Of a DNA stretch of 64,000 nt, positions 1 to 28,931 are shown in pieces. Made by a program: the position numbers and the translations under genes. Under the pieces are notes generated by a model. The model did not search any database and was not told where the DNA came from. It was given only the letters and a program-made list of their open reading frames with translations. Position 1 is the first letter of the stretch, and the number at the start of each line of letters is the position of its first letter. Origin of the DNA: Anthoceros angustus (Eukaryota > Plantae > Anthocerotophyta); NCBI GenBank assembly GCA_010909165.1, contig MU008154.1, positions 682,001 to 746,000 of the forward strand, in the 5' to 3' direction.

Positions 1-429
1 ATTAAGCATTGATTAGTGTTAATTAATCTAAGTGCTTATGTTAATTAAGCATTGATTAGTGTTAATTAAACATGGTTAGCAATAGCTAAGTGGATAAGCT
101 CAAGTAATATGCTTTGGCATATTCCTTGCATATTATAGTGTATAGCTAAGTGGATAAGCTCAATATTTTGGCATATTCCTTGCATATTATAGTGTATTCT
201 TAGGATATTTTGCATATGCCGATGCCAATAGGATATCTTAGAATATGCCGTGGTCTAGATATATAGACCCTTCCATTGAGGACAAGCTCGATCATAGCTT
301 GTCCTCTAGATATGCAATGCAAGTTGTGAGGAGGCCAAAGCTATGACTCGAGAGCGATGTGTGAGGAATTTGCGTGTTGTTCTCGTGGGAGAGTGTGTTT
401 GTGCCACGACGTGCGAGCTACTCCCTCCT
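1..429 (+). repeat. Partial 5' LTR of the DNMT-gypsy element, with internal 43-bp tandem repeats
   Basis: Colinear with the 3' LTR (attaagcattgattagtgttaattaatctaagtgcttatgtta repeats through gctactccctcc); diverges abruptly at ~430. Confidence 0.85.
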
Positions 430-619
430 ATGCCATGATCTGTGTACACGCATGCAGGCGATGCTAGGCGGGCGCGACAGGCGTTAGCGATGCTAGCGAC
501 GCCAGGGCGAGCTAGGTGACGCTAGGCGCCAGGCGACGCCAGGCTAGGCCGCCAGGCCGCTAGGCGAGGCTACGAGGCAACGCCGCAAGCAGGCAAGGGA
601 CTCAAGTGTGCCCAAGGCT

Positions 620-855
620 TGAGGCCAGAGAGGGACCAAGCCAAGGCCAAGGAGAGAGGAGGAGAAGCCCAAGTCCAAGGCCAAGAGGAGGCGAAGCCCA
701 AGTCCAAGGCCAAGGAGAGGAGGAAGAAGCCCAAGTCCAAGGCCAAGGAGAGAGGAAGAAGCCCAAGTCCAAGGCCAAGGAGAGGAGGCAAGAAGCCCAA
801 GTCCAAGGCCAAGGAGGCGAAGCCCAAGTCCAAGGCCAAGGAGAGGAGGCAAGAA
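620..855. repeat. Minisatellite, ~7 copies of aagcccaagtccaaggccaaggag(agaggaggcaag), preceded by GC-rich gctaggcg/ggcgacgcca repeats (455-600)
   Basis: Visible tandem units of ~24-36 bp. Confidence 0.9.
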
Positions 856-946
856 GGCAGAAGAAGCCCATACCAAGGAGAGGAATGAGGCTCCATGTGG
901 CCTTTTAAGGCCAACCAACCAAGGAGAAACAAGAGTATTTTACCTT

Positions 947-1210
947 GGGCCCTGATTCCAAGGGATAAAGGATAGACATGGGTATGTCATCAGTCCATTG
1001 ATTTCACTTTCTGTCCAAAACTCCTAGTCGGCACCCCATCCAGGTACTGATCCACCCCACGGGTGCTTAACTCTGAGTTCCTATGCCTTTGCTATCCAAC
1101 TCACCCACCCCTCACATTTTTGACCATATATGCAGAGTATTTATGCAATTTTAACATGCATAGATACTTAGAGGTTTCACTAATCACGATCTAAGATAGG
1201 GGTGTGTTAA
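947..1210 (-). mobile_element. Cassandra-like LTR with 5S rRNA-derived core and a degenerate tRNA-Met PBS
   Basis: 1019-1085 (actcctagtcggcaccccatccaggtactgatccaccccacgggtgcttaactctgagttcctatg) aligns by eye with the reverse complement of the 5S rRNA internal control region (acttcccaggaggtcacccatcctagtactactctcgcccaagcacgcttaactgcggagttctgatg). 947-960 reads tggaatcagggccc on minus, resembling the PBS tggtatcagagcc. Confidence 0.6.
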
Positions 1211-1249
1211 CCTTGATTAAGGGTTTGATCTAGCCACTAACCGCCTGGA

Positions 1250-2480
1250 GTGCATGCTCGACACACTCGATCCGGACGGAGCTACCAACCAGAAGTCCAT
1301 CGAGCGAATTCAAGTCCCGACCAAGAGGAGAAGTGCGAACACCGATTTTGGTACCAGAAGGACGGAGGAACCCAAACACAATCAACAATCTTTGAAGGAT
1401 CCGTGAGTGGCAACACACAAGACACGTTAGTGCCGGGACAACTCAAATGGGAAGCGAGGAGGACTTGTCTCTTGGAGTCGCCAAGATGGGAGGAGACAAG
1501 GATCGAATGGAGTTGTTCACGGAGCGGGCACCTTGCTGGAGGACTTCATCGAGAAATGCGTGCGGTGTGTGCGGAGATGGAATTGAAGACCGGATACACG
1601 AAGCGATACGCTTCATCCAAATGCCGAAGTACTTGGGGATGAAGCATTGGCGTGCTATCGCGAAAGGCGAGGCTTGAGCGGTGGAGGACCCGATGAGTAG
1701 CAGTTCAAGCTCCGAAGGAACCGTCTGAGCAGGCGGTGGCACCAGTGGGCACGATCCCATCGAAGAGATGTTTGACATCTTCCTGGAGTTTCCTGCAAGC
1801 ACGGATGAGAAGATCTCCGGTGACACACTTCAAGATGAAGGCGAGATGCGAAGATGGCTTATCAAGAATCGACCGGTTAGTGCGTGACACCAAGATCATG
1901 AGTGACCCGAGATGCCGCGGGCATTGCCATATGCTGCGCATGAAGGTGCAACAAGCGGTGCACACGAAGGGGCAACACTACACCCTCAAGGAAGTGTACG
2001 AGATGGTGACAAGATAGGGCCCGACACTTTCTCGTCTTGTTGCAAGTGATTACTCCCAAAGTAGGAGTGGTGGGCGACATGACCGACGAGGTCGAGTGGA
2101 GGAGCTCGAGACAAGCCAGCCCACAGCCCCAAGAGATGCGTGAGGTGCCGAGGGGCGGACCATTCCCTCATGAGTGCGAGCATGCATTCGGAGGAGTCAA
2201 GGGTGAGGAGCCATGCCCTAGGTGTGAATGCAGGCACAATGAAGCGGCATGTTGGGAGAAGCATCCGAATTGCGGCCTCACGGGTTATCGAGCAACAACC
2301 CGGCCAATGCATGCGTCAACCTCATCCACAAAATCGAAGAGCAAAGGCGCCGTGGAGGAGGCACCGGCGAAGTCCCGTGGACAAAAGAAACGGAAGCATC
2401 AAAGAAGGCGATGGACAGCTACGTGGCACGCCTTGCAAAGCTGGAGAAGTTGGTGCGGAAGGCGAAGATCAAGGAGAGCG
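1250..2480 (+). pseudogene. Gag remnant (frameshifted) with zinc knuckle
   Basis: CPRCECRHNEAACWEKHP at ~2213-2268 (CX2CX3HX4C), located upstream of the protease. Confidence 0.6.
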
Positions 2481-2964
2481 GTTCATCATCGAGGACGAAG
2501 AAGATGAGCACAAGCTTGGATACATGGCGGACGGATCCAAGGGCAGGGGAAACCTCGCTACGAGAAGATAGCTCGGAGGAAGAGGATGTCTTGACACCGG
2601 TCACGGAAGACACGGAAGGAAGCTTGGGATCCTCTTCCGAACCTATGCCAAGATGCCAAAGTCGTTTGAGCCATTGCCAGAACAGCTGTGGAGCAACATC
2701 AAAGTCCAGTGGGCGATGTGGAGAAACCCATGCACAGTTCGGCGGAGACGATGGCACAAAAGCTTGAGATGCCATGTTTGACCTACAAGACATGGGGTTG
2801 AGCGTGAAGGAAGTCGGGGTTTGACTCGGCGGATGTTGACAACCCTTGAAGACGAAGCAAGTGTCACAATGTGCCACAGTGGCAATGATGTCATTCGACC
2901 TCGAGCCAAGCATCTCGTGGAGAAGCGGAATCTTGCCGAGTGGGAGTGGCTTTGGTCAACAATC

Positions 2965-3300
2965 GGAGAGGCACATTGAAATCAATGGATTCGCACCAAG
3001 GAGGTGTTGATTGACACCGAGCACGCCGGTGATCGTTGGAAGAAGAGTGAAGGAAGCGTTGGGTCTCCACCAAGAAAGGTTGAAGGAAACCAAGTGGAAG
3101 ATCCGGACGCATGGGACCACGGAGCATGTGTTGGGGTGACAAGGTACAAGCTGAAGGTTTCATTCAAACCAAGAATGAGACTTCACCTTTGTCGAGGTAC
3201 ACCGCTTGGTCAATCACAGACACTTTTGATGTCTTCTTGGGGACGCTTTGTACAAACACAGAGTCATGGTGGATTTGTGGGAGACAGTCTACTATCGACC
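2965..3300 (+). pseudogene. Retropepsin-type aspartic protease remnant
   Basis: Across frameshifts: (K)EVLIDT[G]ARPVIVGR at ~3001-3045 and TDTFDV(L)LG at ~3215-3242. Confidence 0.7.
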
Positions 3301-3667
3301 AGTGGAGAAGGAGCAAAACCGATGAACGGATTGCCCGCATCCCTCTCTGCATGGCAAGGATCATGAGAACCTCATTGCCACAGCGTCTACCCAGTGTTTG
3401 GCGCCGTAGTGAAGGACACGCCACGTGCTTGAACCTCTTGGCGTGTGTCTAACAACTGACCCGATGGAGGATTTCGGCGAGGAGGAGGAAAACAAGCTAG
3501 GGTTGCAACCACCCTCGGAGGAGGTTCTTCAAGTCACTCGGACATGGTGGCTGTGATGAGCCGTGCAAAAGGCAGGGAGGATGGTGCAAGAGGACCGGTG
3601 CCCTATGAGCCGGAGAACTCTGTAAGTTCTTGCCTAGGGTTGAGCCTGTTTGTGACCTAACACAGTC

Positions 3668-4145
3668 ATCACATGGCGACCTCGGGAAGGCGGCATAGTG
3701 CTCGTGGAACTCTTTGGAGGCATCGAACGGCTTGGCAGTGTGGCATCAAAGTGCGAAGATACGTGCATTGTGACCCGGATCCAAAAGCAAGGATTGTGTC
3801 AGAGCGTAAGAGACTTGATGGGGAGTACCTAACCTCGACGTGGGGAGTCGGTGAAGGGTTTACTGCCGATGGATGTTCGCATGATAGGGTTGTCCCATTT
3901 GAGTTGTCTTGGGCAACCGGTGGACCTTGTCATCGCGGGTTGGGAGTGTCAAGGACTATCCTCTGCAGGCAAGGTCAAGGTCTCAAGGATCCACAGCATT
4001 GTTCTATGACTGATGAGGATCTTGCGCTTGATCCGAAAGGGCAAGAAAGGCCTTGTGGATACATGTTGGAGAATGTGCCATGCATGAGCGTGAAGAAGCA
4101 AGTTCGGAGGACTTTGCCACGATCCGAGGAGTGTTGGGTCGGAGC
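3668..4145 (+). pseudogene. C5 cytosine DNA methyltransferase catalytic domain, motifs I-VI; frameshifted and truncated before motif VIII
   Basis: Motif I GIVLVELFGGI at ~3692-3724; CGIKVRRYVHCDPDPKAR (motif II region); motif IV PVDLVIAGWECQGLSSAG at 3917-3970 with catalytic Cys codon 3947-3949; motif VI GYMLENV at 4057-4077. Confidence 0.9.
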
Positions 4146-4189
4146 TCAAATCTTAACAAAAAGTGTAACATAGGCGGCCTTTTCTAGTA

Positions 4190-4370
4190 GGGTTTGTAGC
4201 CTTTCACGCCATCAATATATCCCACGAATATTAGTTTGTGCTCGAGCGTCAAATTTGCTGCCTTTGGATCATGAAGTCGATGACGCTTCTCTTTGGGAAT
4301 CCATGCATCACCCGAAATCCGAAGATGGGGAGAGAGAGGCTTGTGGCGCCCAAGCCTCAAAGGGAGTCCG
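4190..4370 (-). pseudogene. Copia integrase C-terminal fragment interrupting the DNMT element, next to an assembly N (4372)
   Basis: KLIFVGYIDGVKGYKPY resembles KLLMLGYTEGIKAYKLY of the copia pol elsewhere in this window. Confidence 0.55.
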
Positions 4371-5160
4371 ANATCTTTATTCTGGATGCTTTCTAAGCAA
4401 AGTGATTGCCGGGTTGTTCTCAACATGCATCACCGGGTTGTTTCAATATTTGCAGTAAGCATACCATCTTCTCCATTGCCGGGCTGCATCCTTGCAGATG
4501 CCCTTGTTGGTTGCTTCTCACCGTAATTGCTTCGCGCGATGAACCGGTGGGTTGCTTCGAACCGCAGATGCATTTCACACCGGTACGGTCCACATGCACC
4601 GCCACGCCATCGTGAGTATCCCGCCGGCGGATGCACCCCGCCTGGGCGCCATATGGGTGGCGACCGGAAGTCAAGCCCGCTTTAGCTCCACTAACGGTTT
4701 GCCTCACTCCTTCTAAACAAATTTGGTGTATAACCTTGTGGAACACAATGTACCCATCATTGTTTCTCAACTCGCAGTAGCCTCACGGACACCTACCGGC
4801 AAGACACAGTTGTCAAAAGTCTTGATCGCAGGTGAGTAGACGCGAACGACATTGGGGTTTGCCGTGGTCGCCTTCACCGCAGGGGAAAATTAGCACCTGG
4901 TCATTCTTCTCAACGAAAGTCGCTGCCTCGTCTGGGCCTCACGCCGCCTGGTTTTTTTTTCGGTAGCAGTGAAATTTTAGAGAGAGAATCGGCCTTTTGG
5001 CCATTATTTTACCCAAGATAGTAAAATTCATTACACTATAGTAGAAAACATGCCAAGTGGGGTGGATATGATCTACCATCAAGGTGGAAAAGAGCACTAG
5101 AGTAGAAAACATTTAGCGCTGAGTCGCCACCAACTTCGAAACCAAGAAGGCGGGCTGTGG

Positions 5161-5430
5161 GTGAAGGATTCCGACTCGCATCTCAACAAGAGAAGGCGAG
5201 TTTGGAGGGCAAGGAGAGTGCGAGAGGAAGCGTGCAAGCCATCCGAGCCACCACATGAGTGGTTAACAGCCGAGTTGAAGAGCAACCAACGCCGCCTAAA
5301 GGAGTTGTTGGAGGCATCGCGACATGTGTTTGCTTTCACGCTATGGAGATGGGGAAGTACACCAAAGGGAAGTTCCACATAGAACTAATCAAGAATGAAC
5401 CAAGTGTTCAGAGGCAGGCTCGAAGGCAAG
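5161..5430 (+). pseudogene. Gypsy pre-RT linker; RT, RNaseH and integrase are deleted after it
   Basis: LKELLEASRHVFAFT / MGKYTKGKFHIELIKNEPSVQRQARR is typical of the segment just before gypsy RT; no YxDD or integrase motif follows. Confidence 0.65.
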
Positions 5431-5519
5431 AAGAAAATGACGACAACACCGGGGAGAGTAGTCCACATGAGCCCATGAGGATGTCAAGACAAGCCTCCAC
5501 TCATGGACAAGGTTCATAA

Positions 5520-5573
5520 CCTCCGGACGACATTCCCAAAGGAGATTGGTTTTGTGCACAATGCACTACATGA
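5520..5573 (+). pseudogene. C-terminal half of a PHD finger ending the pol ORF
   Basis: PPDDIPKGDWFCAQCTT-stop matches the PHD tail consensus (P..vP.G.W.C..C). Confidence 0.75.
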
Positions 5574-5636
5574 GGTGCGACGTGTAGTTCTACTAATGAT
5601 AATGTTTTGACTTAGAGTCTCACATTATCGGGGGAT

Positions 5637-6390
5637 TGGTTGCACCTATATCTACAGCAGATTTGTTTGCTTGGTTGTTGGTCGAGGAAGTGCTTATATG
5701 AATTCAAGTGCTTACCTCGACATGATGCGCCGCAGTGTGATACTAATCTGCACTTGGGTTTAGTGTTTGATTAGCATTAATTAATCTAATTACTTATCTT
5801 TAAGTAAGTAATTAGTGTTAATTAATCTAAGTGCTTATGTTAATTAAGCATTGATTAGTGTTAATTAATCTAAGGTGCTTATGTTAATTAAGCATTGATT
5901 AGTGTTAATTAAACATGGTTAGCAATAGCTAAGTGGATAAGCTCAAGTAATATGCTTTGGCATATTCCTTGCATATTATAGTGTATTCTTAGGATACAAT
6001 AGCTAAGTGGATAAGCTCAAGTAATATGCTTTGGCATATTCCTTGCATATTATAGTGTATTCTTAGGATATTTCCGCATATGCCGATGCCAATAGGATAT
6101 CTTAGAATATGCCGATGCTGTGGTCTAGTATATATAGACCCTTCCATTGAGGACAAGCTCGATCATAGCTTGTCCTCTAGATATGCAATGCAAGAGCTGT
6201 TGTGAGGAGGCCAAAGCTATGACTCAGAGATGTGTGAGGAATTTGCGTGTTGTTCGTGGGAGAGTGTGTTTGTGCACACGCAAGCTACTCCCTCCACTGT
6301 TGTTACTGGTGTGCGGGTAACTTGAATCGTATAAGCACTTCCCGACCAACCAAGCAAACAAATCTAATACTGAGATATATAGTGCAACCA
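5637..6390 (+). repeat. 3' LTR (754 bp) of the DNMT-gypsy element
   Basis: TG..CA ends, terminal inverted repeat, preceded by a PPT, internal 43-bp and ~75-bp tandem duplications, matches 1-429. Confidence 0.9.
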
Positions 6391-8267: not shown

Positions 8268-8522
8268 TGACAATTTATATGGTATATGTGGATCAATTAA
8301 ACACTTAGAATAATTACATTGTATATTGTATCAACAAGAAGTTAATGCCTAATGAACGAAAAGACAACTTAATTTAATAAACCAAAAGGTATGACTATTC
8401 AGCTAATGGACGTAACCCTAGCGAACAGGTATTAACTTAAATAACCTCATGTTCACACTAAGTATATAAAAGGTAGCTAAAACCCTAAACCCTTATCATG
8501 ATTCAGCATATATATCTCATCA
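8268..8522 (-). repeat. copia-1 3' LTR
   Basis: TG..CA; near-identical to 15287-15541. Confidence 0.97.
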
Positions 8523-8805
8523 CTCCCACTTGGTGATCATGGTAAGGACAGCATCGTCCCCTCTTGACCCCTCGTCTTCCAGCAGGTTCCTTGTGAGACT
8601 GTGGCTTGAGCTGGGTGTCCTACGAGTTGTTGCGCCTTGTGCGATCCATTACGCCCGGTTCCTGCCAATTCTGAACAGGATGGCTTGTACCAGTGTGAAG
8701 CCGCTAGCCATGAGGTGCGCGCCCTTTATAATCTACCTCTACATTCTCACTCTTATGGCAATTGAGCATCTGAAGCTCAAAATTTCTCTGCTTACGCTCA
8801 CCGCA

Positions 8806-9587
8806 ATGTCTTCCTCCTCACCTTCTGATGATGCTCCGAAGCGCACTCGCTCCTGCTAACGATTAGGCGATTTGCTTCACCACATGGGGCAGTGCCTCAA
8901 TTACACCTCGAGTCGCGCACCGCCGGAGAGGTGCCAGAAGGCACGAGGGACGCCTGTAGTGGAAGAGGGAGGTCCGCATCAAGCAAGCGAGGGCATGTGT
9001 TCTCACGCAGCATCAGCCGCCGAGATGGGCGGACCATCTCGGGCCACACCAGTAGAGGAGAATTACTTCTCCAAAACTGCATGCGCTGCTCGCCGCTTCG
9101 AGGCAGGGGAGTACGCCTACTCTGACGATGAAACTCGTCCTGCCACTCCATGGAGGTTTCCACGAGTCTATGATTACACTGAGGAGACCAAAATCGTCAG
9201 CCTTGGGAACTTCAACAATCCTGGGACACCTCTGTGGTACAAGTGCATGTATACCAGGCTTGTGATGAAACGTATCAGGGTTTCCATGTGCAGGGAGTTC
9301 CCTGGTCACGTCGTCAGCCTTTATCTTGAGTACCAAGCTTTATGTGTTTTCTATTTGCCTGCAAATCCACTTCACAAGCATGTTTCCCTAACAGTCAGGT
9401 TACTCCCACTTGCTCTCAAACTCTGTTGCTGTGTGTAGGTTCTGAACAGCGGATCCAGGAGGAAGAAGGACTTGAAACTCTCGAGCTGCATTGTGGAGGC
9501 GGAAGAAACGTAAGACCCCGGATCAGAGAGAGCTTTTCCACCTCGTTGAAGCCGCATGGCAGAATCCTCCGACTCAAGGATAATTGA
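8806..9587 (+). CDS. Antisense accessory ORF of copia-1 (disrupted, possibly spliced)
   Basis: Starts MSSSS. The domain ETKIVSLGNFNNPGTPLWYKCMYTRLVMKRIRVSMCREFPGHVVSLY is homologous to the antisense ORF of copia-2. Confidence 0.65.
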
Positions 9588-9659
9588 TGATCATGGAGAG
9601 GAGTTTGAGGAGGCAAGTTTCAACTGGGACCCCGACTACTAGGTGTAGCAGATAGGCTG

Positions 9660-12600
9660 TTAGGGACTGCTGAGGAAGTCATGCGACCCCCCCATCCCCA
9701 GACTTTTGACATGACGTTCATGTAGGTCTCTGCCAAGTGCCTTCGTTAAAATATCTGCTGGGTTTTCTTGTGTCGGAACATACTCGAGGTTAATCTTGCC
9801 CTCCTTGATGAGGTCACGTATATTGTGATATTCAACCTCGACGTGCTTGGTCCTCGAATGAAAAACCGGATTTTTAGCTAACGCCATTGATCCTTGATTG
9901 TCAGGCTTGATTGTGGTACATGTAGGTAGGTCTATGCCCATCTCGCTGAAAAGAAGCTTGCACCATGTGACCTCCTTAGCAGCAGCAGTCAGCACTTTGT
10001 ATTCTGCTTCCGTGCTAGATAGAGCTACTGTTGGTTGCTTTTTAGATGACCAGCAAATTGGGCCACCTGCCACACTGACAACATAACCTGAAACAGATTT
10101 TCTGGTGTCTATGTCTCCAGCATAGTCAGAGTCGGTATAAACATCAAGGTCTAAGTTCTGTCCAGGTGTAAACTGGTATTTGATGCCCCTGTGAGGTGTT
10201 CCCTTAAGGTGCCTGAACACACGCTTTACGCATGTCCAGTGTTCTTGTCCCGGGTTCTCCACGAATTGTGAAAGAACTCTTGTAGAGTAAGCAACTTCCA
10301 GCCTTGTAGTGTTAGCAGCATAAATGAGTTTGCCAACACCCTGCCTGTAGGGAATAAGGGCCATCTTCTGTTTTTCTGCATCTGTCTGTGGTGACATCTG
10401 CTTGCTTAGCTTCAGACCACTAGGTAGGGGTGTTGCAGCAGGTTTAGCATCCTTCAGCCCTAAGTGTTCTGCACTGTCGAGAAGGTATCGTGGCTGTGTG
10501 AGTGTAATAACCCGCTTTGTCCTGTTGCGCTGTATGTGAATACCAAGGCAACTCTCAAGTGCACCAAGGTTCGACATCTTAAACTTCGTGGCCAGCACGT
10601 TTGTTATTTGGGTGATAAACTTCGAGTTGTTGCTGGACAGTATCAAGTCATCAACATACACTGCCAGGTAACACACTACATCACCTTTCCTGTAAATGTA
10701 CAGACTGCCATCTGCCTTGCTTTTGACGAAGCCTAAGGCTAACAACTCCTCATCTAGAACTTCATTCCACGCCATAGCAGACTGCTTCAGCCCATATAAC
10801 GTTTTGATGAGTTTTAGGACATGATCTTCTTTCCCCTTAACCTCATAGCCTGGAGGCTGTTGCATATAAATTTCTGTGTCAAGCTTGCCGTTGAGGAAAG
10901 CCGTCTTCACGTCGAACATTTGCAGTTCATAGTCTTTGTACGCTGATACTGCACATAATGCTCGCAGGGTTGCTATCTTCACCACAGGGTCGAAAGTCTC
11001 AAGATAGTCCAGCCCTGGTACTTGGGAAAACCCTCGAGCTACCAGGCGGGCCTTATATCTGTCGAACGTGCCATCAGCCTTCACTTTCAGCTTAAACACC
11101 CACTTGCAAGAAACCATTTTGCATCCTGGAGGTAACTTTGCTAGCTCCCATGTTCCATTTTCGATTAAGGAATCATATTCGGACTATTTAGCCTTCTTCC
11201 ACTCTGCACTATCAGGCCTGCTCAATGCCTCTTCATAGGACTGTGGCTCTATGGGATCGAGAGCAATTGCAGCATGTGCCCTAGCAGAACGAAAGTCTGG
11301 AGCTTGATAATAGTCAGGAGCTCGTCTTTCTCGAGTGGGATAACGTGGTTCTTGTGATGGGGCTATTGCAGGTTCAGGCTGGGTTTTAACATGATCATCC
11401 TCATGTGCTTCAGCTTGATCATCCTCAACCTCAGAGACAGCATCTGGAGCTTTGGGCTCTGGAGGATGGTGGTCCTGCAAATTATCTGGCTGATCTGGCA
11501 AAGTTTCGCCGGTCAGGCATAGCAGGTTGTGGATGTTCATCATCATATTCTTTTCCGACTGAGAAGTTGTTCCCTCCTGCAGGAGCGGCATCCTGGAGAG
11601 CGGGAGCCTGAGTGCCATGGTCAGTGAGATCAAAGTGAGACACATCGGCCAGAGGATCATCATCATCTGCAGAGGTTGAAAGGTCTGGAGCATTCTGAAC
11701 TCCTCCCACTGACGCCCAAGTGCGTGTCTCGTCAAATGTAACACTTCGAGCATAGATGACCTTGTTGGAGGGTACATCATATAGCTTGTAAGCTTTTATC
11801 CCCTCCGTGTAACCTAGCATCAACAACTTGCGAGCCTTGTTCTGAAACTTCTTTCGTTTCTCTTTAGGAATGAAGGCGTACGCAAGACATCCGAAAGTCC
11901 TCAAGTGAAGTATTGAAGGCTTCCGTCCTGTAAAGGCTTCATAGGGTGTCATCCCAACAACTGAATTTGTGGGCAGCCTGTTGCGAAGGTAGGTTGCGGT
12001 CATGAGAGCTCCAAGATGTAAGGAAAACTGAGCTGCAGAAGTAAAGAGGAGATTGCCTCCTAAATGATTCATGTGCCTCTGCGACTCCATCTCAGGAGTG
12101 TAGACAACTGTGAGTTGTCGTCCTATGCCTTCAGCTAGGCAGTAGTCATGGAATTCCTTAGAGGTAAATTCACCCCCATTGTCAGACCGAAGTGTCTTCA
12201 AAGACTTCCCTGTCCATCTCTCAACATATTTGATATACTGTTTGAAGTAGTTAAAGCATTGGCTTTTGTTCTGCAGGATATAGGTGGTGACAAATCTGGT
12301 CTTGTCATCGGTGAACGTCAGAAAGTATCGTCCACCACCTATGGATGCTTGTGAGAGAGGGCCACACAGGTCAGTATGTACGAGCTCAAGAATGTCTGCA
12401 GCTCGGTGAGGGGCCTTATTTCCTGGCGGCCAGCCGCTTTTGACAACACACACACGCTCACAACAGGTAGGCGCTCAAAGGGCCTATCTGTCCATCTTGA
12501 CATGTATCACTGCATACTAACTCGCAGCTTGGCTGTATGAGGGTGACCTAGGCGTGCATGCCCCAACTTAGCTTTTTGATCTGCGTGCAGGCTTGGGAGA

Positions 12601-14015
12601 CGCCTGCAAGATGGGACTGCCATCTCCACTGTATGTAGACCTAAATGCATCATGGTCTGATGACCCATAGGCAAGTATCTTCCTATGATCATAAGCGTCT
12701 ATCACCTGGCATTCTGTCCTAGTGAACAAAACATGACTGTTATTATCAGCATTCAGCCTTCTAACTGATATGAGATTTCTTGTCATGTCTGGCACGTAAT
12801 ACACATCCTGCAATGTGAGGGTGACTCCAGATGGAACTGACAAGTCTATCGTGCCACGACCAGGAGATACTAGGGATCTATCATCACCTAGGTACACATA
12901 CTGATCCTTAACTGGTCTGTATGTCTTGTATGCATTTCTGTCAAAACAGATATGCGCAATAGCGCCTGTATCTAGATACCACTTAACAAATGGTCTAACA
13001 TCAACCTTGGATGACAGGCATGTAGGGAGCAAGAGTGGACTAGCAAACTCCCTTGTCCCAACGGTAAGGGCAGATGGAGTGTTTTGCTTTTTGACCACCA
13101 CGTGACCTTCAAAGATCGGACCCTCCTTGAGGAACCCGTGATTGCTTCTTGCGACACCACGCTCCCAAAGGACTGAGAATTTTGGCACCAATGGCAAGTA
13201 CCTGACTTTTTACTCTTCTTGTTAGAGTTGGTGGCAGCAGAGTTGCTTGAGCCTGCAGCAGGAGCTCCTTGCGAGCCTCCTCTGTTGGAACGAGAAGAAC
13301 TTGCTCCTCCTCGTCCTTGTGACTGGTATCTCCCACTTCCTCTCCCACGTCCAGATGTGTACAAAGCCTGCTGTTTGCCTGAACGTTTCTGGTTGCCCTT
13401 AGAGGCTTCTTCTTCCAGCAAAACTCCAACAAACTCAGCAAAGCTTGTTTCTAGCAGTGTCACTTTAGCAGCTTGTGCTAACTTAGTCACTAGCGAGGGA
13501 CCTGTGTGTGAATAAAATTCGACTGTGACTCCGCAATGTAGAGCATCGAACATGGACAGCTGTTTGTCCTTCATGGTTTCCCCTGAGGCTTCTTCTAACC
13601 TAGAGGCAAGTGTTCTGAATACTCCTATGTGTTTTTCAATGGAATCTCCATCCTTCATCTTCAAGTTATGGAGACTGCGCATTGCTGCCATGACAGAGGC
13701 GTCATTTCTTCCAGAAAACAGGTCTCGCAAACGTGTCCAAATCTCCTCAGCAGTCTTGGCCCCTCCAGTCTGTCTCAACATCTCAGATGTTAGCCCAGAC
13801 CGGATCAGGAACATAGCAGCATCATTTTTGACCTGCCACGCCTCAGCTTCGGATCCTTCAGACAAAGGTTTGGTCTCGATGCCCGTAGCAACTTTCCACA
13901 ACCTTCTGTTTTGCAAAGCACCTTGCATCCGGATGACCCAGATGTCATAATCAGTCCCGTTGAATCTGTCCTCTTTCCGGAACCCATCTCCAGCAATACT
14001 GGCTGTTTCTGACAT
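9660..14015 (-). CDS. copia-1 gag-pol polyprotein (several frameshifts, one stop)
   Basis: gag FNGTDYDIW; protease WYLDTGAIAHIC; HARLGHP; integrase LELVHTDLCGP..LRSDNGGEF; RT KARLVARGFSQ..YVDD; RNaseH YTDSDYAGD..SSTEAEY..ADILTKAL. Confidence 0.95.
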
Positions 14016-14198
14016 GTTGAAAATATTGTCAAACTTCGTTGTGTTGTCAGGTTCGGGTCCCGATTCAAATCGTGGATGTGATTCGGTATCGATCGTGATC
14101 GTGAACAGGTCAAGGATCGTATTGCCTTCGTGTTCTTCCTTCCTACGCGAGGCATAGGGCATGCTCACATGCAACAAAGGGAACTAAATGATGTCTAA

Positions 14199-14735
14199 TC
14201 ACAGAATGTGAGCAGGGTAAGCATTTCCTGCCATTCCTAATTCTGCCAATTGCAGCGTGTCTTGCTGTGCTAGACGTCTTTCTATTTTATTGTTTCTAGA
14301 CTCCCATCTATTAAAGGAGTATGTAGCACAAGAGGGACAGGAGTTAGGTGTATCAAACCTATGTCTCCTACTTGTATTGACAACCTTCCTGCATGCAACT
14401 CCTCGTGAGATGGGGTTAGCAAGCAGCTGTGGCTTCAACAGGGTCAGAAGCTTAAAATCCAAGTGAGAAATCTGCTCTTTCAAATCTTGTAAGTCAACGT
14501 TAGCAGCTATCACCTTTCTGCCTATTGATTTGCAGTTCCTGTCGATATGCTGCTCATGTGACTCAAGTCTGGTCACAAGTTGTGTGACTCCTGTGTGTGG
14601 TGTGACCTGCGTTGTTAGGAAAGCTCTGGGCTGGCCGTTACCGTCAAACGCACGTTGCACACGTACTTCAGGCAGATTCAAAGGATTTCTGGCTGTAGGA
14701 GCAAATCCCAAGTGCCTCTCTTCAGGATACAGCAC
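14199..14735 (-). CDS. Extra sense ORF (178 aa) in the copia-1 5' leader, unknown function
   Basis: Open frame between PBS and gag, with a heptad-like stretch (LQDLKEQISHL) and CPSC; no recognised homology. Confidence 0.4.
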   Translation of the reverse strand: MLYPEERHLGFAPTARNPLNLPEVRVQRAFDGNGQPRAFLTTQVTPHTGVTQLVTRLESHEQHIDRNCKSIGRKVIAANVDLQDLKEQISHLDFKLLTLLKPQLLANPISRGVACRKVVNTSRRHRFDTPNSCPSCATYSFNRWESRNNKIERRLAQQDTLQLAELGMAGNAYPAHIL

Positions 14736-15286
14736 TTCAAGGATTGAATCAAAAGCTTCATGCGATTACATTGCATGAAAAGTGGCGAGCGATTCACGTC
14801 CACCCGATAGCTCTAAAGAGTTGTTCAAGTGTTAGGGATCACATGCTTGCCCCGCGCGATTCTGCCTTTGTGGAATCCTCAGGCGCGCCTGTTGGCCTTG
14901 ATTATGTGCCATCTACAATGGCCTGAACTCTAGTTGCCAGAATGCTTTCTAAATGCATTCTGAATTTGTTTTGTGTAAATTACTTTAATTTCTTCATGCA
15001 ATTTGCCAAATCTGGCAGTTGTCCTAGTGTGCCTTTGCCAGAATTGCTCAAAGTAGCAGTCTGATACAAGACGCACTAGGATGCACTCCTAGATCTGCAA
15101 ACTTGTATGATTCTTTTAAAGAAAACAACTCAAAGTTCAGTTCTTGATTTTTATTTGCTTTTCTTGCTTAAAACCTATTTTCTAAACAAGAAATAGCCAA
15201 AGATACATGTTTGTGCATATCTCTCCATGCACAATTTAATGTGCATTCTCTAGAATGCAATCCACATAGTCATAGCTCTGATACCA

Positions 15287-15541
15287 TGACAATTTATATG
15301 GTATATGTGGATCAATTAAACACTTAGAATAATTACATTGTATATTGTATCAACAAGAAGTTAATGCCTAATGAACGAAAAGACAACTTAATTTAATAAA
15401 CCAAAAGGTATGACTATTCAGCTAACGGACGTAACCCTAGCGAACAGGTATTAACTTAAATAACCTCATGTTCACACTAAGTATATAAAAGGAAGCTAAA
15501 ACCCTAAACCCTTATCATGATTCAACATATATATCTCATCA
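15287..15541 (-). repeat. copia-1 5' LTR
   Basis: Directly followed on minus by the PBS. Confidence 0.97.
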
Positions 15542-16179: not shown

Positions 16180-19100
16180 TGTGATGCTTTTGATCACCGG
16201 AAGGTCTCAGCTTATGGATCATCTAATTAAGATCTTTTCCGTCTTCACACAAATATTGGTGTTGCCCAAACCCACTTGGCTTCACAGGCTCCAGACGCCT
16301 CTGCAAAACAGATTGACAAAGCCAAGTTATGGCATGCCCGTTTAGGTCATCCCCATAGTGCTAAGCTGCAGAAGCTAGCTACTAGTGATGTTTATTATGA
16401 TGGCAAGATAGGCACTCTGCCACCCTTACCTTTGTGTGAAGCGTGTGTGTTTTCCAAGCGGCACCAGGCAGCTTTCAAGAACAAGACTCCACATCGAGCT
16501 TCAGAATTTCTTGAATTGGTTCACACTGATATATGTGGGCCTCTCTCACAGCCTTCCCTTGGTGGCGGTCGATATTTCCTTACGTTCACTGACGACAAAA
16601 CACGTTTTGTTATAGCCTACGTCCTGAAGGCTAAGAGTGAATGCTTCTTTCTTTTCAAAGACTATTTGAAGTATGTAGAGAGATGGATTGGAAAACAATT
16701 AAAGACCCTTCGATCTGACAATGGTGGTGAATACACATCTAATGAGTTTCAAGCCTATTGTGCAAATGAAGGGATAGGCAGACAACTTACCGTTGTTTAC
16801 ACGCCACAACAGAATGGTGTAGTCGAACGCTTGAATCTCACCCTTCAAGAGATGATTTCATCTTTGCTACATCAAGCTTCTCTGCCTCTTCCTTATTGGG
16901 CTAAGGCTCTTATGACAGCTGTTTACCTTACAAACAGGTTGCCTACTACTGCTGTAGACGGACAGACACCTTTTGAAGCTTTCTTTGGCATAAAACCTTC
17001 TCTCCAACATCTTCGCACATTTGGATGCATTGCTTATGCTTTTATTCCCAAGGAGAAGCGGAAGAAGCTATCTGCAAAGGCACAAAGACTTCTCATGATC
17101 GGTTATACTGAAGGGATCAAGGCATATAAACTCTATGATGCCTCCCGTGATAAGGTGGTCTACTCACGTAGTGTTACTTTTGACGAAGGGCGCTTTTGGA
17201 CAACAGTGGGAGCTGCTCCCACCTATGAGGAGGATGATTACCTTTCTGCCCTCCCTGATGTCACTATCTTTGATGATTCTACTCTCGAGTCGATTGCTCC
17301 TGCAGGGGGGGAAGAGCAGCAAAATGATGAGCAGGCAGTAGAGATAGAAACTGTTGATTTTGCTGATCAGCAGCAGCAACCTCCAATTGACATTCGGCCA
17401 TATCCACCTGATCCAGCTGATGATGATGCTGATGATCCGACGACTGGCGCATCTCCGGCGTGATTTTGATGATGTTCAAGACTCGAACAAGCTCCAAAAC
17501 GTCGTTATCCTACAAGGGAACGACGTGCTCCAGATTATTATCAAGCTCCAGAATTTAGAGCAACTTCTTCCCATGTTCACGTACATTCTGCCCTGGATCC
17601 CATAGAGCCACAAACTTTCCAGGAAGCCTTGAGCAGACCTGATCACAAAGAGTGGGAGAAGGTAATAAAATCAGAGTATGACTCATTGATTGAGAATGGC
17701 ACATGGGAGATAGCCAAACTGCCACCAGGCAGAAAAATGTCTCGTGCAAATGGGTGTTTAAGCTAAAAGTCAAGGTTGATGGTACCTTTGATAGGTATAA
17801 GGCCCGGCTTGTTGCGAGAGGTTTCTCTCAAGTTCCAGGACTTGACTATTTTGAGACTTTCGCTCCAGTTGTAAAGCTAGCAACCCTGCGCACCATATGT
17901 GCCATATCAACTTACAAAGATTATGAGCTGCAGATGTTTGATGTCAAAACTGCATTTCTTAATGGAAAGCTTGATACTGAAATCTATATGCAGCAACCTC
18001 CTGGTTATGAGGTAAAGGGCAAAGAAGAATATGCTTGCAAACTAATTAAATGCCTGTACAGACTGAAATAGTCAGCTATGAAGTGGAATGAAGAGCTGGA
18101 CAGAGAACTACTAGCTCTAGGATTCACTAAAAGCAATGCTGATGTGTAAACTATCTGGATTTCGAAACTCCCTGTTGGATTGTGTCTTTGAGTGATTTTT
18201 TGTTTTTTTCTGCTAAGTTTGGTGTCAAAACGAGCTAGGTTGTCAGTAGGAAGGGATATTTATACTAGAAAGTGTCCTTGACCTATGAGTTTTTGGGTTG
18301 TTTCGGGTTGAATAATAATCGGTCCTTAGACTATGAACTCGATACTCCTTGGCCTTTGGTCTAATATCAATATCTAATAGAAAGTCTATATATGTGGGAG
18401 GGGGTCCCCATATTTGGCGTAGGTCCAGGCTAGAGGTCGAACCAACCGAAGTTGAACTGGTGTGTGGTCGCCGATCGTGGGACTATGTTTCAAGACGGTT
18501 GGCGAACCGGGCGGTCGTGGAAGGAAGGAGCGGTCGCGAAGAAGAAGTGGTAGCGGTTTGCCATCGTAGAGTTTCCGGGAAATATAACCCTAAGGGAACT
18601 CGAAGGCAGGGGCGGGCCGGGTAGCTCCAGACGATCCCCGACTGTGGCACGAGCTCGCACGAGGTCAGAAGGGCAGCGTGGCGGGAGCTCGCGATTCTCG
18701 GAAGGAAGAAACCCCGGGGATTGACCAAGTTGGAGATTCCGAGGCAGTTATCAGCAATCGAGGCGTGGGCGTGAGGGTTTTGCAGAGCATGGCGCCCAAG
18801 GTTGCAGCAGAATTAACGCCTAATGGCCAAATATGGACCATTGGAGGGTCCGAGGTGGAGGATTGGTGAGGGAGCTGGGACTTGGGATCATGGAAAACAA
18901 AGGAGAGTTTATGGGAGGATTTTCCAGATAAACGAGGAAGGAGGACCCAAAAGAAGAAAGGACGAAGGGCCAACCAAATCGGAGGGGAGTGCGGAGATAA
19001 CATGGGAGTAGTGGCATCCTAGGAATAGAACTTTGGATAGGATGCCATCTTGGACCTAAGGCCCGAAATTGTAGGGCGCCTTCGCTCAGCTTTTAGGACG

Positions 19101-21129
19101 AAAGTGGCTATGACTCAAAGAATTGTATAAAGGGGCTTGGTGCCCCTCACATCGAGCAACTCTGGTTGAGATCCCCACGCCGCCTGTGGCTGTGGAGACG
19201 TCCGATTGACAGAGGTGGTGTGCGCGAGACGCCCTAGGGGTGGTAGAGCTTGCTGCAACCGGGGAGGAGGGGTGATAGAGCAATCTTGGCCGACAAAGGA
19301 GGAGGAAACCAAGGGATTGGGGGGCGGTCCGGAGCTTGCTCGTAACGCCCGCCAGGACGCCTGGGGTTCTTCTTTCCTTCACCCTTGTTCCCGTAGTTGT
19401 GTTCAAATTGAGAGAGAAGTGTTGAGTGGATGGTTGGAAGCTGGGCGAATTGAGGGAGAGAGAGAGAGAGAAGATTGGGTGAAGGAGTGATTGAACATCA
19501 GATGGCGAGGTGTAAGAGGAGTTGAGAAGGGAATTAATTGAGAGACTAGGAGATTTGTGTGGATCCAAAATAATCCAAACCGTGTGGAAGTGTGCACAAG
19601 AGGAAACAGATTCCTTGTGGAATTGTGTGAGGGTGGCGCCTTTGTGTGTGTGGAGAACGGTTGAGAGGATTGGTCTAGGAATTGTGTGTGCATGAAGTGT
19701 GGAGTGCCAAATAAAGTCCGATCAGTGAGCACGGTAGCGTGCGGGGATCGCGCTGGCGCCGAGATGAGTTGCTAGGGTTTGGTGGGACCCACCTCGTAGT
19801 CAAGCCACCGGTAGTGGAATGAGTGGAATAGATTTGTCGTGGAATAGATTTTGGTCGTGGAATGAGACCGGGTGGAATGAGATTGGTAGTTGGACAAGTC
19901 GGGAGGTAGTAGTAGTTGAGTAGATAGGTAAGAGGAGTGTAAGTCCCGACTTAGGCAAAGGTCGAGTGATAGAAGTTAGCGCCTCGGCACAAACCATTCC
20001 CTTGGGAGCGAATCCTAGGCCTACAACGACATTGAGGGTGAATGTGGACCTCACGGTGTCCCTAGACACAAATTCACACTCCACATGATGGCAGCTTATA
20101 CATATACAGAAATGGAGACATCGTGTGTTACTTAGCTGTTTACGTCGATGATCTCATTCTCTCAGCAATAGCCAGGCTTACATTGACAAGATAACAGATC
20201 TCCTGGCCAAAAGGTTCAAAATGTCAAATCTAGGCCCACTTCAGAGTTGCCTTGGCATCCATATTCAAAGGAATCGACTTACCAAGGTCATAACTTTGAC
20301 ACAACCTAGATATTTGCTGGACAGTGCTGAACAGTTTGGCCTCAAGGACGCCAAAGTTGCAGCCACACCTCTTCCTAGTGGCTTGAAGCTCAGCAAGAGC
20401 ATGTCACATGTCACACAGGCCGACAAAGATCAGATGGTTAACGTCCCATATAGACAAGGAGTTGGAAAACTCATATATGCTACGAACACAACCAGACCTG
20501 AGGTAGCCTATGCTACTAGTATCTTGTCCCAATACTTGGAAAATCCTGGACAGGAACATTGGAGCTGTGTTAAACGAGTATTCAGGTACCTAAAAGGGAT
20601 TGCACACAAAGGTATAAAGTACTCTTACCAATTAGGAGCACCTCTGGACTTGGAAGTTTACACAGACTCTGACTATGCCGGAGATATGGATATGTTTCAG
20701 GCTATGTGGTTGGTGTTGTAGGAGGACCCATATCTGGTCCGGCAAGAAACAGCCAACAATGGCTCTGTCCAGCACCGAGGCAGAATATTGATGTTGATAG
20801 CAGCAGCCAAAGAAGTAGTTTGGTGTAAGCTGTTGTTCTCAGAGCTAGGGATTGACCTTCCAACCTGCACAATAATAAACACTGACAACCAAGGATCGAT
20901 GGCCCTTGCTAAAAATCCCGTCTTCCATTCAAGGACTAAGCATGTGGAAGTAGACTATCATTACATCCGGGAGTTAGTAGTAGCAGGGACAATCAGACTT
21001 CAATATGTTCCAACACAGGACAATCCAGCAGATGTCCTAACAAAAGCACTTGGACGTGAACTACATGAGAAGCATGTGAAAGGTTTAGGACTAGGAGAAT
21101 CAAGTACTTTCCTAGCTAATCCCACCTAA
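16180..21129 (+). pseudogene. copia-2 pol (integrase, RT, RNaseH) with stops, frameshifts and a solo-LTR insertion
   Basis: LWHARLGHP..CEAC; VHTDICGP; SDNGGEY; KARLVARGF; YVDD at ~20141; YTDSDYAGD; ADVLTKAL. Confidence 0.95.
18145..20085. mobile_element. Solo LTR (1941 bp), probably gypsy
   Basis: TG..CA ends flanked by a perfect 5-bp TSD tgatg (18140-18144, 20086-20090); removing it restores RT SNADGSLY. Confidence 0.9.
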
Positions 21130-21205
21130 TCCCTTAGTGCCACTGCTGCCTTAGCCCCAGCTAGGATTCTGATTGTCTGTCTCCGAAGAAGGCTCCTCTC
21201 GAGTG

Positions 21206-21985
21206 TCATTCGAATCGTAGTCTGTCAAGGTGTGAAATGGAATCGGAGTAGCCTGAGGACATGTAGTCCTCAGGGGGAACTTTTCTCTCCACCAACTTGC
21301 TCAGAGACATCTGGACATGCGAATGATAATGTTCGACAAAGTGGGAGCTAATTGGCAAACAATGGAGAATGGTCAGTGGGCTTACGATAATAGCTAATGA
21401 CATGGTAAAGGAACTCTCCGCAATTGCATACTTGGGTTCTCTTCATGACTTACCAGTTTTGCGGCAGCGATACCATAGGGGGGAGTTTGGACAGGCAATC
21501 GACCCCAACGTCACAATTGTGGTGTCTCCGATGAGGCTCCCGTGAGGGAACTTCACTGACAGGTCAGGTTTCTTCTCTCCTTTCTCATACATGGCAACGG
21601 GACCAGAAAAGGAATAATCTGGCAATGGCTGGGGGACAAAAGACACATGATTAGTATATGCAGCAGCGCTCGGCCTGGAAGAAAAACCCATGTTTGATGC
21701 GAGCGCCCGAGCAGCCGCAGAGAGCGAAAGAGACGCCGCCTCCACCTTCCTTCCAAGAGCAGCAGCAGCCGTAGATGATGCCTCCACTTTCCTTGCAACT
21801 AACACAGCCCTTGTTGTGCCCCGAGGGCGGCCACGACCTCTCTTAATTGGTGTTGAGCTTGATGGCGCCTCAATCTTTCTTGCAGACAAGGCAGTTGTCC
21901 TAGAAATCTTCTTTCCGACAGAGCGGCCCTTGCTATCTCTCAGGTAACGGCGAGCGGCCCTCACCTCCTTAGAGGAAGAAGACAT
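21206..21985 (-). CDS. Antisense accessory ORF of copia-2: AT-hook plus a Cys/Trp-containing domain
   Basis: MSSSSKEV...PIKRGRGRPRG (AT-hook, ~21820-21843)...DTTIVTLGSIACPNSPLWYRCRKTG[fs]VMKRTQVCNCGEFLYHVISYY. Confidence 0.75.
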
Positions 21986-22249
21986 GTTGATCAGCTTACA
22001 TTCAAGCAGCTCTCTAACAAGGATGCTGAGTGTAAAAAGGGTGAACAACGTTATCACGCACCTGGTCTTTAATGGCTTTTGGGCTGCGTGGTCCATTAAG
22101 TGCCGAGCGTAAGAGTTTTAGGGCATAACGCAGGTAGAAACGAGGCACTCACAGCTGAGAGTTGGCATTGGCATCTGAGCTGGAGCGAAGGACTGGAGCT
22201 AGTAGTCAGACTGTGAAATAAATCTCCCGAAATGATCAACAAGTGGGAG

Positions 22250-22510
22250 TGAAGAAGTATAGTGTGTTGAGCATTTACGTGAATCAGGTTGCAATAATCA
22301 ACATACGTAATCATAAGGGTAGCTGAAAATAAATGTTAGTAAGTACTTGTTCATTAGGGTTGTGTCTCATGGCGAACCGTCATGTCGTTTTAAGTTCTAG
22401 TTTAAGTAATGTCTTTTCATAATAAGCATTTAAGCCTTTTTCTTGATATACAATGATATATGTAATTACTAAATGAGTAATTGATCTACACTTATTCCTC
22501 TAATTTGTTA
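22250..22510 (+). repeat. copia-2 3' LTR
   Basis: Begins TG right after the PPT; ends aatttgtta versus aattgtca in copia-1. Confidence 0.85.
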
Positions 22511-23125
22511 GATGCTTTCTTCGCGAAGTCCTTAATGAACCTCCTATAGTATCCTACCAAACCTATGAAAGCACACACCTGCTTCATGAATTGCCGCAAG
22601 AAATGTCGAAATATGGTATTCACCACTTGTTGAAAAGTAGCTGGGGCGTTGCACAACGCCAAAGGCAGCTTTGAGTAAGCATAAGTGCCCCAATCTGTCG
22701 TGAATGTGGTCTTGTCCTAATCCTCCTTCCTTAGCGAAATTTGATTGTAGCCTGAGTAACCATCGAGAAAGCTATACATCTCATGTCCAACACACTTTCC
22801 ATGAAAGGCAAGGGGTGGTGGTCCTTCTTCGTCACTTTGTTGAGGTTCCTGAAGTCTTGACACAGCCATACCTCTCCTTGCTACTTTTTGGGTACAATTA
22901 CGATCGGGGCTACCCACTCACTGGTAAGCAGAGGGTAGATCACTTTGGCCTCCAAGTACTGGCCTAGCTAGTTCTTGACCACCATAGAATACTTGGGTTT
23001 ATCCTATACTTTGATTCATCGGGATATTGCCTTCTTTCAAATCGATTCGATGTATCCCCAATTCTTCCAGGATTCCTGTCATGTCAGTAATCTTGAAGGC
23101 AAACACATCGACATATTCAAATAGG
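22511..23125 (-). pseudogene. Gypsy reverse transcriptase fragment (duplicated at ~33207-33745)
   Basis: FEYVDVFAF..HRIDLKEG; EWVAPIVIVPKK; YSFLDGYSGYNQI; LCNAPATFQ; GYYRRFIKDFAK. Confidence 0.9.
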
Positions 23126-26012: not shown

Positions 26013-28931
26013 TCTTCAAAAATAAATATTTAGCGCCTCAAGAGTAATTCAACCATGGATTGTTGGTCTAGTGTTTGGGAAATAAGTGTAGTAACGAATA
26101 GGTTTCGTGTTCAAACCTCGTGCCTCCTCAGTTCAATTTTGTTGATTTTAAGGATGCTTGCATGGGCGCATGGGCAACTAACTTTGTTCATTTTAAGGAC
26201 GGCATTGCCTTAAAGCCCAAGTGGTTGCATTGAGTGCCGAAGGTTGAAGACCACGATGGCGACCTTTTGGATGAGGGTCGCATGCTAGATGTCAGGTGGC
26301 GACACCGCTGGACCGGGCCCAAGAATGATACTATTGAAGACGAGCAAGCAATGGAGGAGAACGACAACTCGAGGCGGAGGATATGGACCGCCTAATATGG
26401 CGGTGGTACTTGACCCGGCCAAGGCATGGATGAGTCGCCGCACTCTTGAATGGCTATTGTCGATGACCACTTCCTCCTTCAGTTGTTTGTTGCAATGTTC
26501 TCACGACCACTTAAATGAGACTCCCGCTAGTACAAGATTGTTTTCTTGTGGTAGCGATATTATATTTATATTTGGTATTTTCTTTTGTGGTATCTTTGAA
26601 TTTCTTTCACGCTTATATTGGTCCATCTTAGTAACAAAATGGCAGCCCTCTATGCATTCTACTAAACGAACGGGCCCACACCCCATCGTGCTCAGCTCGG
26701 TGTAGACTTGAAAGTGCATCTTTATCAAAGATATGACCTCGTAAAGGGTGTGTGCATTATCAAAGTAGGGCACATATGTCGCTCTAGGTAAGGTGTTCTT
26801 CGTGACAAGGTGTCTCAAGGGGCCGCGATATCCCCCTTCAAAAATTATCGTGTTGTTGCTTCCACCTGTCACAATCATAGTGGTTGCGCAGTAGAGGGTG
26901 TCATTCATATGATGTGTCATTCATATGATATTTTGTTTCTTGAAGAAGAAGAAGAAGACTAGAAAGGTACAGAAAGAAGGCAACTATACACCTAGTTTCT
27001 ATGCAACTTTTATAATTTAACTCATTCTTGAGTGTCTCTTTGTCCTAGTTTCTTCCATACGATGTTGGTAGGATTCTACAACGCTTTTCTTGCATATTTC
27101 CACTCGCCAAAGGGTATAGCTTTACAACCATCTTGTGCAACTTCCCGCTTTTTCTCGAGAACCCAACATCGCCTCCGAATATTATTCTAGGCATCAAGAC
27201 TTTGTTTTCGCTTTCACATTGATCCGACACTGCTCACCATGAGGTTTCACAAAGCAGCCTATAAGAGGAAGCGATTGAGCATAGAATGCAGACATCGCTA
27301 GAATATTCGCCTTGAACTAGATTATGGTCACATATTTAAATTTCTATTGTGCATTTCATTCGTATAGCCTTGTGCCTCTCTTACAACAAGTGGGCGTAAG
27401 GCTTTTCATAGTAGCGGGCCCCGTAGGACTTTTTACAACAAGTGGCCCCGTAGGGCCTTTTACAATAGGCGGACCCATAGGGCTTTGGCTTGGGCCCAGC
27501 TCCAAGTGCACACCATACCACTTTCGTTCTCGCATTGCGGCGAATCAAGAAGAGCATCGTGTCAAGGAAGATATTATTGTGCCAAATGTCTAAGAAACAA
27601 AGTCTTGTAGGATTCTAGCGAGAGTATAGTCTTAGGATTGACTATGAGTGAAAGGTTGATGCGCAAACAAGTTTGCACACCAAAATCACAAAGAAGCCCT
27701 AAACACTCTAAATGTTTGTACACGCATGGATTGTGAGAATGACCTTCTTTAGGAAGGCTCAAAATTGGATAAAATTGAAAATCAATCGCTTTGTGCACAC
27801 GTAAACAAGACCTAAACTATTCAAAATGGTCTTTTAGTGCGGATTTTTAGCATGCAATTTGGGGTTTAGAAGTGGTGCAAAAGGTGGAGAAACCCCTTTC
27901 TACCCGACGCTATTACCGGTAGAAACCCATGGGAGTTAATGATATCGATCCCCGCTCCTTCTTGTCCCGGTGGTAACATTAACATCAAGGCGATGGCGCG
28001 TGCATTGAACTTGAGAATTTATGGTCTTGGTAATGACATGGTAAAGGAACTCTCCGCAATTGCATACTTGGGTTCTCTTCATGACTTACCGTTTTGCAGC
28101 GATACCATAGGGGAGTTTGACAGCAATCGACCCCAACGTCACAATGTGGTGTCTCCGATGAGCTCCCGTGAGGGAACTTCACAGGTCAGTTTCTTCTCTC
28201 CTTTCTCATACATGGGACGGAAAGGAATAATCCAATGGGTGGGGACAAAAGACACATGATTAGTATATGCGCTGGCGAAGAAAAACCCATGGAGTTAATG
28301 ATATCGATCTACTCCTTCTTGTCTGGTGGTAACACAATATCAAGGCGACGTTTCTTGCATTGAACTTGAGAATTTATGGTCTTGGTAATGACATTGTTGC
28401 ACCACTTGTGGCTGCAAAGGAGTTTCTCAATAGGCTAGAGGTCGATGTGGTCGTTGCTCGAGCCTTGGCTTGGAAAGGATGGTAGAGACCGCATGATTAT
28501 GACTTTTCACTCCATGGATGATCGCTGTTATGAAGGCTAGGTCTATGTTAGACGACTCGCTATATATCAATCGATCTTACACCATTGCAATGGAAGATTA
28601 AGAAGGAGAAGTTTGAGCTGCCTGCAAAGTCACTTTCTTTCATGGGGATGAATTTGTGGTGTTTAGCCCTCGCTCATGCATTTCATTAACATTATTGATT
28701 GATTGAAGATTATTTGTCTTGTTTGAATTTTACCTTTGCATTCGTAGACCATTTTACCGCAATCTATGTAGTTGCCATATTTCAATCCTATGACAAGATG
28801 TCCTTAGTGGACTTGAATAAATTTCTTCATCTTCTTCATCTTCTTCTTGTTGTTCTTGTTGTTGTTGTTCTTCTTCTCTTCTTCATCTTCTTCTTCTTCC
28901 TCTTTCTTCTTCTTCTTCTCTTCTTCTTCTT

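Follow-up and report, generated by a model that had tools for sequence, protein, structure and literature searches.

Plant long terminal repeat (LTR) retrotransposons can carry extra open reading frames (ORFs) that lie between pol and the 3′ LTR in antisense orientation (aORF-3R or eORF-3′R); in the excerpts of the papers cited here and below, these include maize Grande gene23, rice RIRE2, the TRP28 ORFs of Retand and bean ORF2 (PMC7264820, PMC11963269, PMC4093653). GENE23 of Grande is a nuclear protein expressed from an antisense promoter of its own, and the function of such genes is described as an open question (PMC7264820). All 15 antisense cases in one of these sources are gypsy elements, and its two copia cases are env-like (PMC4093653). 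REXdb records 3′-reverse extra ORFs for 86% of the Retand elements and 60% of the Ogre elements; for copia it gives none in 13 of 16 lineages and 1% in SIRE, with Bianca and Ikeros ambiguous, at a threshold of 250 unspliced codons (PMC6317226). Here we describe an antisense gene in copia-1 and copia-2, Ty1/copia elements of two families in a 64,000-nucleotide stretch of Anthoceros angustus DNA (contig MU008154.1, positions 682,001 to 746,000; hereafter the window). We read it as a lineage-specific antisense accessory gene in copia, of a kind known in gypsy and nearly absent from the surveyed plant copia lineages; we found no conserved antisense protein gene of plant copia in the literature, though further sources may hold one. 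Because of its threshold, the REXdb survey would miss the present gene, which suggests that short spliced antisense genes escape surveys demanding 250 unspliced codons. The plant cases cited here are long, belong to gypsy and have domains that are poorly understood; the present one is a compact copia case, and its selected core of 47 residues is small enough for expression, folding and LTR-binding assays.

The gene resembles the aORF-3R systems in its position between pol and the polypurine tract (PPT), its antisense orientation, its conservation across families and a presumed nuclear regulatory role. The Retand and bean cases belong to Ty3/gypsy, whereas the present host element is Ty1/copia; the 3′ region measures 2.9-6.6 kb in Retand and 1.1 kb in the present case, and the bean ORF2s span 211-939 aa against a probably spliced product of ~200 aa here. 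Unlike the Retand and Ogre families, the antisense frames gave no Pfam match to TRP28 (PF04195), the plant mobile domain (PF10536), DUF390 or SMC at an expect value (E) of ≤1 or ≤10. The usual extra ORF of plant copia, the env-like ORF of SIRE (Sirevirus), shares the position between pol and the 3′ LTR (PMC6317226) but is in sense orientation, whereas the present ORF is antisense and much shorter. CopiaMBD is likewise a copia element with an acquired chromatin- or DNA-reading domain, in that case a recognisable host MBD (PMC6673714), whereas neither MBD nor FYRN gave a Pfam match in the antisense frames.

A preliminary description had placed an MSSSS-starting ORF on the opposite strand between the RNase H stop and the PPT of copia-1, and had proposed that it carries a core aligning with copia-2. 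The position was confirmed: the ATG followed by four serine codons starts at 8806 (+), the pol frame ends at 9660 and the PPT lies at 8523-8532, placing the frame between pol and the 3′ LTR and antisense to gag-pol. The ORF itself is a different matter; its start is present, but a TAA at 8857-8859 (codon 18) stops it short of the core, which sits inside the stop-to-stop frame 8860-9438. The alignment of the cores also stood in part, since homology was recovered (tblastn E 2.5e-7 in the window), whereas the copia-2 peptide quoted earlier spans a one-base frameshift between 21452 and 21449. Except for MSSSS, the N-terminal halves of the two frames could not be aligned. The antisense features are as follows.

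8806 to 9102, plus strand: N-terminal part in copia-1, with the MSSSS start and the TAA; poorly conserved, possibly partly intronic
9103 to 9325, plus strand: conserved region in copia-1, with the core at 9184-9325
9326 to 9438, plus strand: predicted 113-nt phase-1 intron of copia-1, aligned with the copia-2 candidate intron
9439 to 9587, plus strand: predicted last exon of copia-1 in the splice model (RSEQRIQ...KDN*)
21267 to 21985, minus strand: homologous antisense gene in copia-2, with its ATG at 21985 and core at 21526-21385
21385-21311, minus strand: predicted 75-nt intron of copia-2, a GT-AG candidate
28031-28291 and 29096-29522, minus strand: deletion-riddled pieces of the antisense gene, derived from copia-2

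The two cores are 51% identical in amino acids over 45 codons, with identities of 0.62, 0.67 and 0.40 at codon positions 1, 2 and 3, respectively. The proportion of nonsynonymous differences (pN) was 0.36 and that of synonymous differences (pS) 0.69, corresponding to an omega of ~0.26 (bootstrap P(pN>=pS) 0.0025), below the value near 1 that would speak for neutrality in a dN/dS check; for comparison, four pol segments showed third-position identities of 0.34-0.46 and omega up to 0.12, and the third positions of the core are as saturated as those of pol. The first half of the core by itself scored 81, a value reached in none of 2000 shuffles. Because the core had been chosen for its protein likeness, the neutral null was simulated with best-window picking, taking the best 45-codon window of six frames after divergence of the whole 3′ region in 1000 runs per identity level. 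At 40, 50, 56 and 65% DNA identity, the observed score was reached in 0, 0, 10 and 580 runs per 1000, and score and codon contrast together in 0, 0, 2 and 8. The simulation was ungapped and the real pair has one gap, a slight tilt in favour of the observation that has to be counted against our interpretation.

The strand was indicated by the distribution of stops: in the second core segment, the opposite frame that shares the wobble positions contains five stops and the antisense frame none, so that the coding strand is the antisense strand; over the 3′ region of each element, the ORF frame contains 6 stops versus 10-19 in the other five frames. The earlier proposal that conservation at the protein level implies selection was thus borne out by pN below pS at saturated synonymous sites, by the neutral null and by the stops in the wobble-sharing frame; the selection and conservation tests cover two families only, and it is across these two that the protein is conserved. 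We consider it very likely that the antisense frame is, or was, a real protein-coding gene. A non-coding cis-element (an RNA structure, a second priming site or an antisense RNA) whose protein likeness is a by-product would draw on the second PPT copy, which both families keep directly after the core, and on antisense RNAs without coding capacity known in other retroelements (PMC7264820), both of which detract from a protein gene; since three-base periodic conservation is unexpected of such an element, we regard it as very improbable.

Introns had been suggested from pyrimidine-rich AG sites. Both sites exist (9393-9394 and 9437-9438), and the second leads to a stop ending at 9587, where the preliminary description had ended the gene. 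Conservation stops exactly at the aligned donor position, and the aligned AGs follow 75 nt (copia-2) and 113 nt (copia-1) further on; SEQ continues in the same phase in both splice models (HVSEQ in copia-2), and the T content is 0.36 in the predicted copia-1 intron versus 0.26 and 0.19 in its flanks. From these sequence signals, an intron after the core appears rather probable. A point to its disadvantage is the donor itself, which is C/GTAAGC in copia-2 (21385) and C/TTGAGT, reading TT, in copia-1 (9326). Around the position where similarity starts, copia-2 further shows TACTAAT, resembling a branch point, and a strong acceptor, with a pyrimidine tract (12/14) ending in CAG at 21629, so the N-terminal half may be partly intronic; at the aligned position 9102, the acceptor of copia-1 is no more than a weak GAG, and the absence of a donor within the ORF ahead of the copia-1 stop argues against this.

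Both families have a second copy of the PPT in an equivalent position, within the predicted antisense intron and 210-250 nt beyond the stop of pol (9403-9412 (+) and 21339-21347 (-)); the PPT 9-mer occurs 7 times in the window versus 0.64 expected, and the second copy may be an extra plus-strand priming site.

Both copies of the antisense gene are broken as assembled, copia-1 by the stop and copia-2 by the frameshift, and either disruption may be a mutation or an assembly error; in the fragments at 28-29.5 kb, most differences from copia-2 are short deletions, and the reading over the frameshift site is the same. A working gene is therefore inferred for the active progenitors rather than for these copies. 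That every copy seen is disrupted would also fit a fragment picked up from a host gene or another transposon and decaying as passive cargo in both families, as would the intron-like signals, which suggest genomic capture, and the WRKY-GCM1 domains with AT-hooks known in Mutator-like transposases (PMC1702500), and all three detract from a functional accessory gene. Synonymous sites are nevertheless saturated between the families while 51% of residues were kept, which means that selection acted after any capture, and protein searches found no donor gene; passive cargo is accordingly an unlikely account.

Judged by its sequence, the core is an orphan, lineage-specific domain. The preliminary description had not recognised it and had named a dN/dS near 1 or a match to an already described copia domain as grounds for abandoning the gene; neither was found, as omega is below 1 and no known copia domain matches the core. 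A word-seeded protein search with the 192-aa copia-1 frame confirmed none of 170 candidates (lengths 105-336 only), the ESM Atlas gave no usable named match (best score 0.86 with low recognition), and PDB sequence searches returned no match in one case and one match at E 1.2, to an antibody chain, in another. Of 80 copia loci from metagenomes (RNase H identity 39-49%, the best 80 of 452, and not close relatives), none contained a match to the core (best E 0.29), and none of 41 pattern matches in viral contigs was confirmed. Two candidates were rejected. A profile search of 1.84 billion protein representatives gave two matches at E ~1e-4, one of them named Cytophagales, both to repeat proteins with a score summed over four short stretches; Pfam PF22155 (Mre11 cap) matched copia-1 only, at E 0.0035 and 17.5 bits against a cut-off of 27, and was taken as chance.

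The predicted protein was then considered by its parts. In copia-2, the N-terminal half is open and basic (24 K+R versus 5 D+E in 117 aa) and contains an AT-hook-like KRGRGRPRG (~21815-21844) with the RGRP motif, which scored 10.1 bits against the Pfam AT-hook cut-off of 17.4; the copia-1 half is neither basic nor AT-hook-like and lacks the motif. A weak structure model of 9154-9336 (predicted local distance difference test, pLDDT, 52) has four strands at residues 12-14, 27-31, 37-43 and 53-59. In a Foldseek search of 350,542 PDB chains, made after the WRKY idea had been noted, AtWRKY33 ranked first (E 0.96, 56 columns of a 58-residue chain), and WRKY DNA-binding domains were the best whole-domain neighbours of fitting size; no NAC/NAM, FLYWCH or GCM chain was among the matches listed, and a BFVD fold search gave nothing at E<=0.001. 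With the WRKY-GCM1 superfamily (WRKY, FLYWCH and Mutator DNA-binding domains and the metal-free NAM/NAC), the core shares a Gly after strand 1 and a conserved Cys that closes strand 2 and is preceded, two positions earlier, by an aromatic residue (PMC1702500), the latter reading WYKC / WYRC in the two families. The four strands of the weak model, of similar length to those of the superfamily, and the AT-hook-like motif of copia-2, an AT-hook being a partner motif in the superfamily, may be further resemblances. There is no sequence-level match to the superfamily, however. Strand 1 reads KIVSLG / TIVTLG rather than the WRKY signature, and three of the four WRKY zinc ligands are missing, both of which count against a WRKY-like fold; neither family has a second Cys where strand 3 begins or an HxH/HxC after strand 4, whether the frame is read spliced or unspliced. 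The turn between strands 3 and 4 is flanked by a Cys and a His instead. Both cores keep two Cys and one His. NAM/NAC members also have no metal site (PMC1702500), and a zinc-free WRKY-GCM1/NAC-like fold is a tentative lead only.

We judge the chances to be about even that the product is a small accessory protein, probably from a spliced transcript, that acts in the nucleus, binds DNA and regulates the transcription or silencing of its own element. If the gene is real, a promoter within the 3′ LTR or adjacent to it (8268 to 8522 being the candidate source) would very probably drive an antisense RNA, which would be spliced into an mRNA for a protein of ~200 residues. This protein could use its N-terminus, rich in Lys/Arg and AT-hook-like, to enter the nucleus and bind DNA with the four-stranded beta domain, two steps that, taken jointly, may equally hold or fail; it would then bind the DNA of the element and tune its transcription or silencing. 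A real antisense protein with another job carries a lesser but appreciable probability; it might bind RNA or the small-RNA machinery as a silencing suppressor, or else a chromatin protein of the host or the complex for integration, and a metal site of Cys/His type might serve this binding. The selection evidence applies to it equally, the two Cys and one His are kept in both cores, the fold match is unspecific and copia-1 lacks the AT-hook, all of which weaken the case for a DNA-binding regulator; set against this, no fourth conserved ligand was seen, the best size-matched whole-domain structural neighbours are the WRKY domains, and the antisense extra proteins already known either are nuclear or have predicted DNA binding (PMC7264820; PMC11963269). 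The fullest form of the DNA-binding reading is rather doubtful. In it, an unsampled copia lineage, hosted by a non-flowering plant or streptophyte alga, would have a transcription factor of its own, made from a spliced antisense gene; with a zinc-free WRKY-GCM1-like domain and an arm resembling an AT-hook, this factor would bind the LTR and activate the element or shield it from silencing in the manner of a retroviral antisense regulator.

The host element has the gag-protease-integrase-reverse transcriptase-RNase H order, LTRs, primer-binding site (PBS) and PPT of Ty1/copia; the parts of copia-1 and copia-2 are as follows.

8268-15541, minus strand: copia-1, a Ty1/copia element of 7.3 kb
8268 to 8522, minus strand: copia-1 3′ LTR, 255 bp, with 3 differences to the 5′ LTR
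8523 to 8532, minus strand: copia-1 PPT (CAAGTGGGAG), adjoining the LTR
9660 to 14183, minus strand: copia-1 gag-pol, spread over five reading frames
15275-15286, minus strand: copia-1 PBS, adjoining the 5′ LTR; we take it to be of the Met-tRNA type
15287-15541, minus strand: copia-1 5′ LTR, 255 bp
16231 to 22513, plus strand: copia-2, 5′-truncated, with pol, PPT (22241-22249) and 3′ LTR

The gag-pol of copia-1 contains the Pfam domains Retrotran_gag_2, Pol_BBD, rve, SH3_retrovirus and RVT_2, and the flanks of the element (CGAGA / AGTTC) show no target-site duplication. The antisense frame of copia-1 is also open upstream of MSSSS into the LTR (8470-8805 +), where an ATG at 8539 (+) directly precedes a donor-like GTAAGG, an arrangement not kept in copia-2; the copia-1 LTR contains telomere-like AAACCCTAAA boxes. 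A 188-codon stop-free frame 5′ of gag (14202-14765, minus strand), in frame with gag across two stops, has a coiled-coil-like stretch and a CxxC but no Pfam match; it may represent another extra ORF of copia-1, this one in sense orientation. The reverse transcriptase of copia-2 is broken by a ~1.9-kb insert with strong G skew (18144-20072).

The pol proteins of the two elements are 64-87% identical, with saturated third codon positions. In a tree of reverse transcriptase-RNase H (134 rows), copia-1 and copia-2 form one clade (SH-like approximate likelihood ratio test, SH-aLRT, 100), joined with a support of 91 by protein P0027, the nearest database relative of pol (51% identity, in a search limited to proteins of 889-2535 aa). 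P0027 extends 223 residues beyond RNase H (residues 1541-1763), and the opposite-strand reading of this tail, at a plausible distance, looks core-like by eye; back-translation of the tail, made to uncover an antisense core, did not reach significance (at best, 8/60 and 9/60 shuffles were equally high).

Elsewhere in the window, a decayed element occupies 1-6300 between direct repeats (1-428 / 5843-6295, 90% identity). We take motifs near 3700 and 3930 to be cytosine-methyltransferase-like and one near 5545 to be PHD-like; none of them gave a Pfam match. The element recalls the Dnmt3-bearing gypsy of Klebsormidium (PMC5890265). For a neighbouring gypsy integrase, the 12 species-named proteins among 120 matches listed came from liverworts, a fern and a yew, which points to a non-flowering plant or streptophyte alga as host; no protein of Chara was among these 120. 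Finally, 28500-52700 is an array of ~4.2-kb AT-rich units, partly inverted, with 35-bp tandem repeats and TTC runs, and pieces of the 3′ end of copia-2 are embedded at its left edge.
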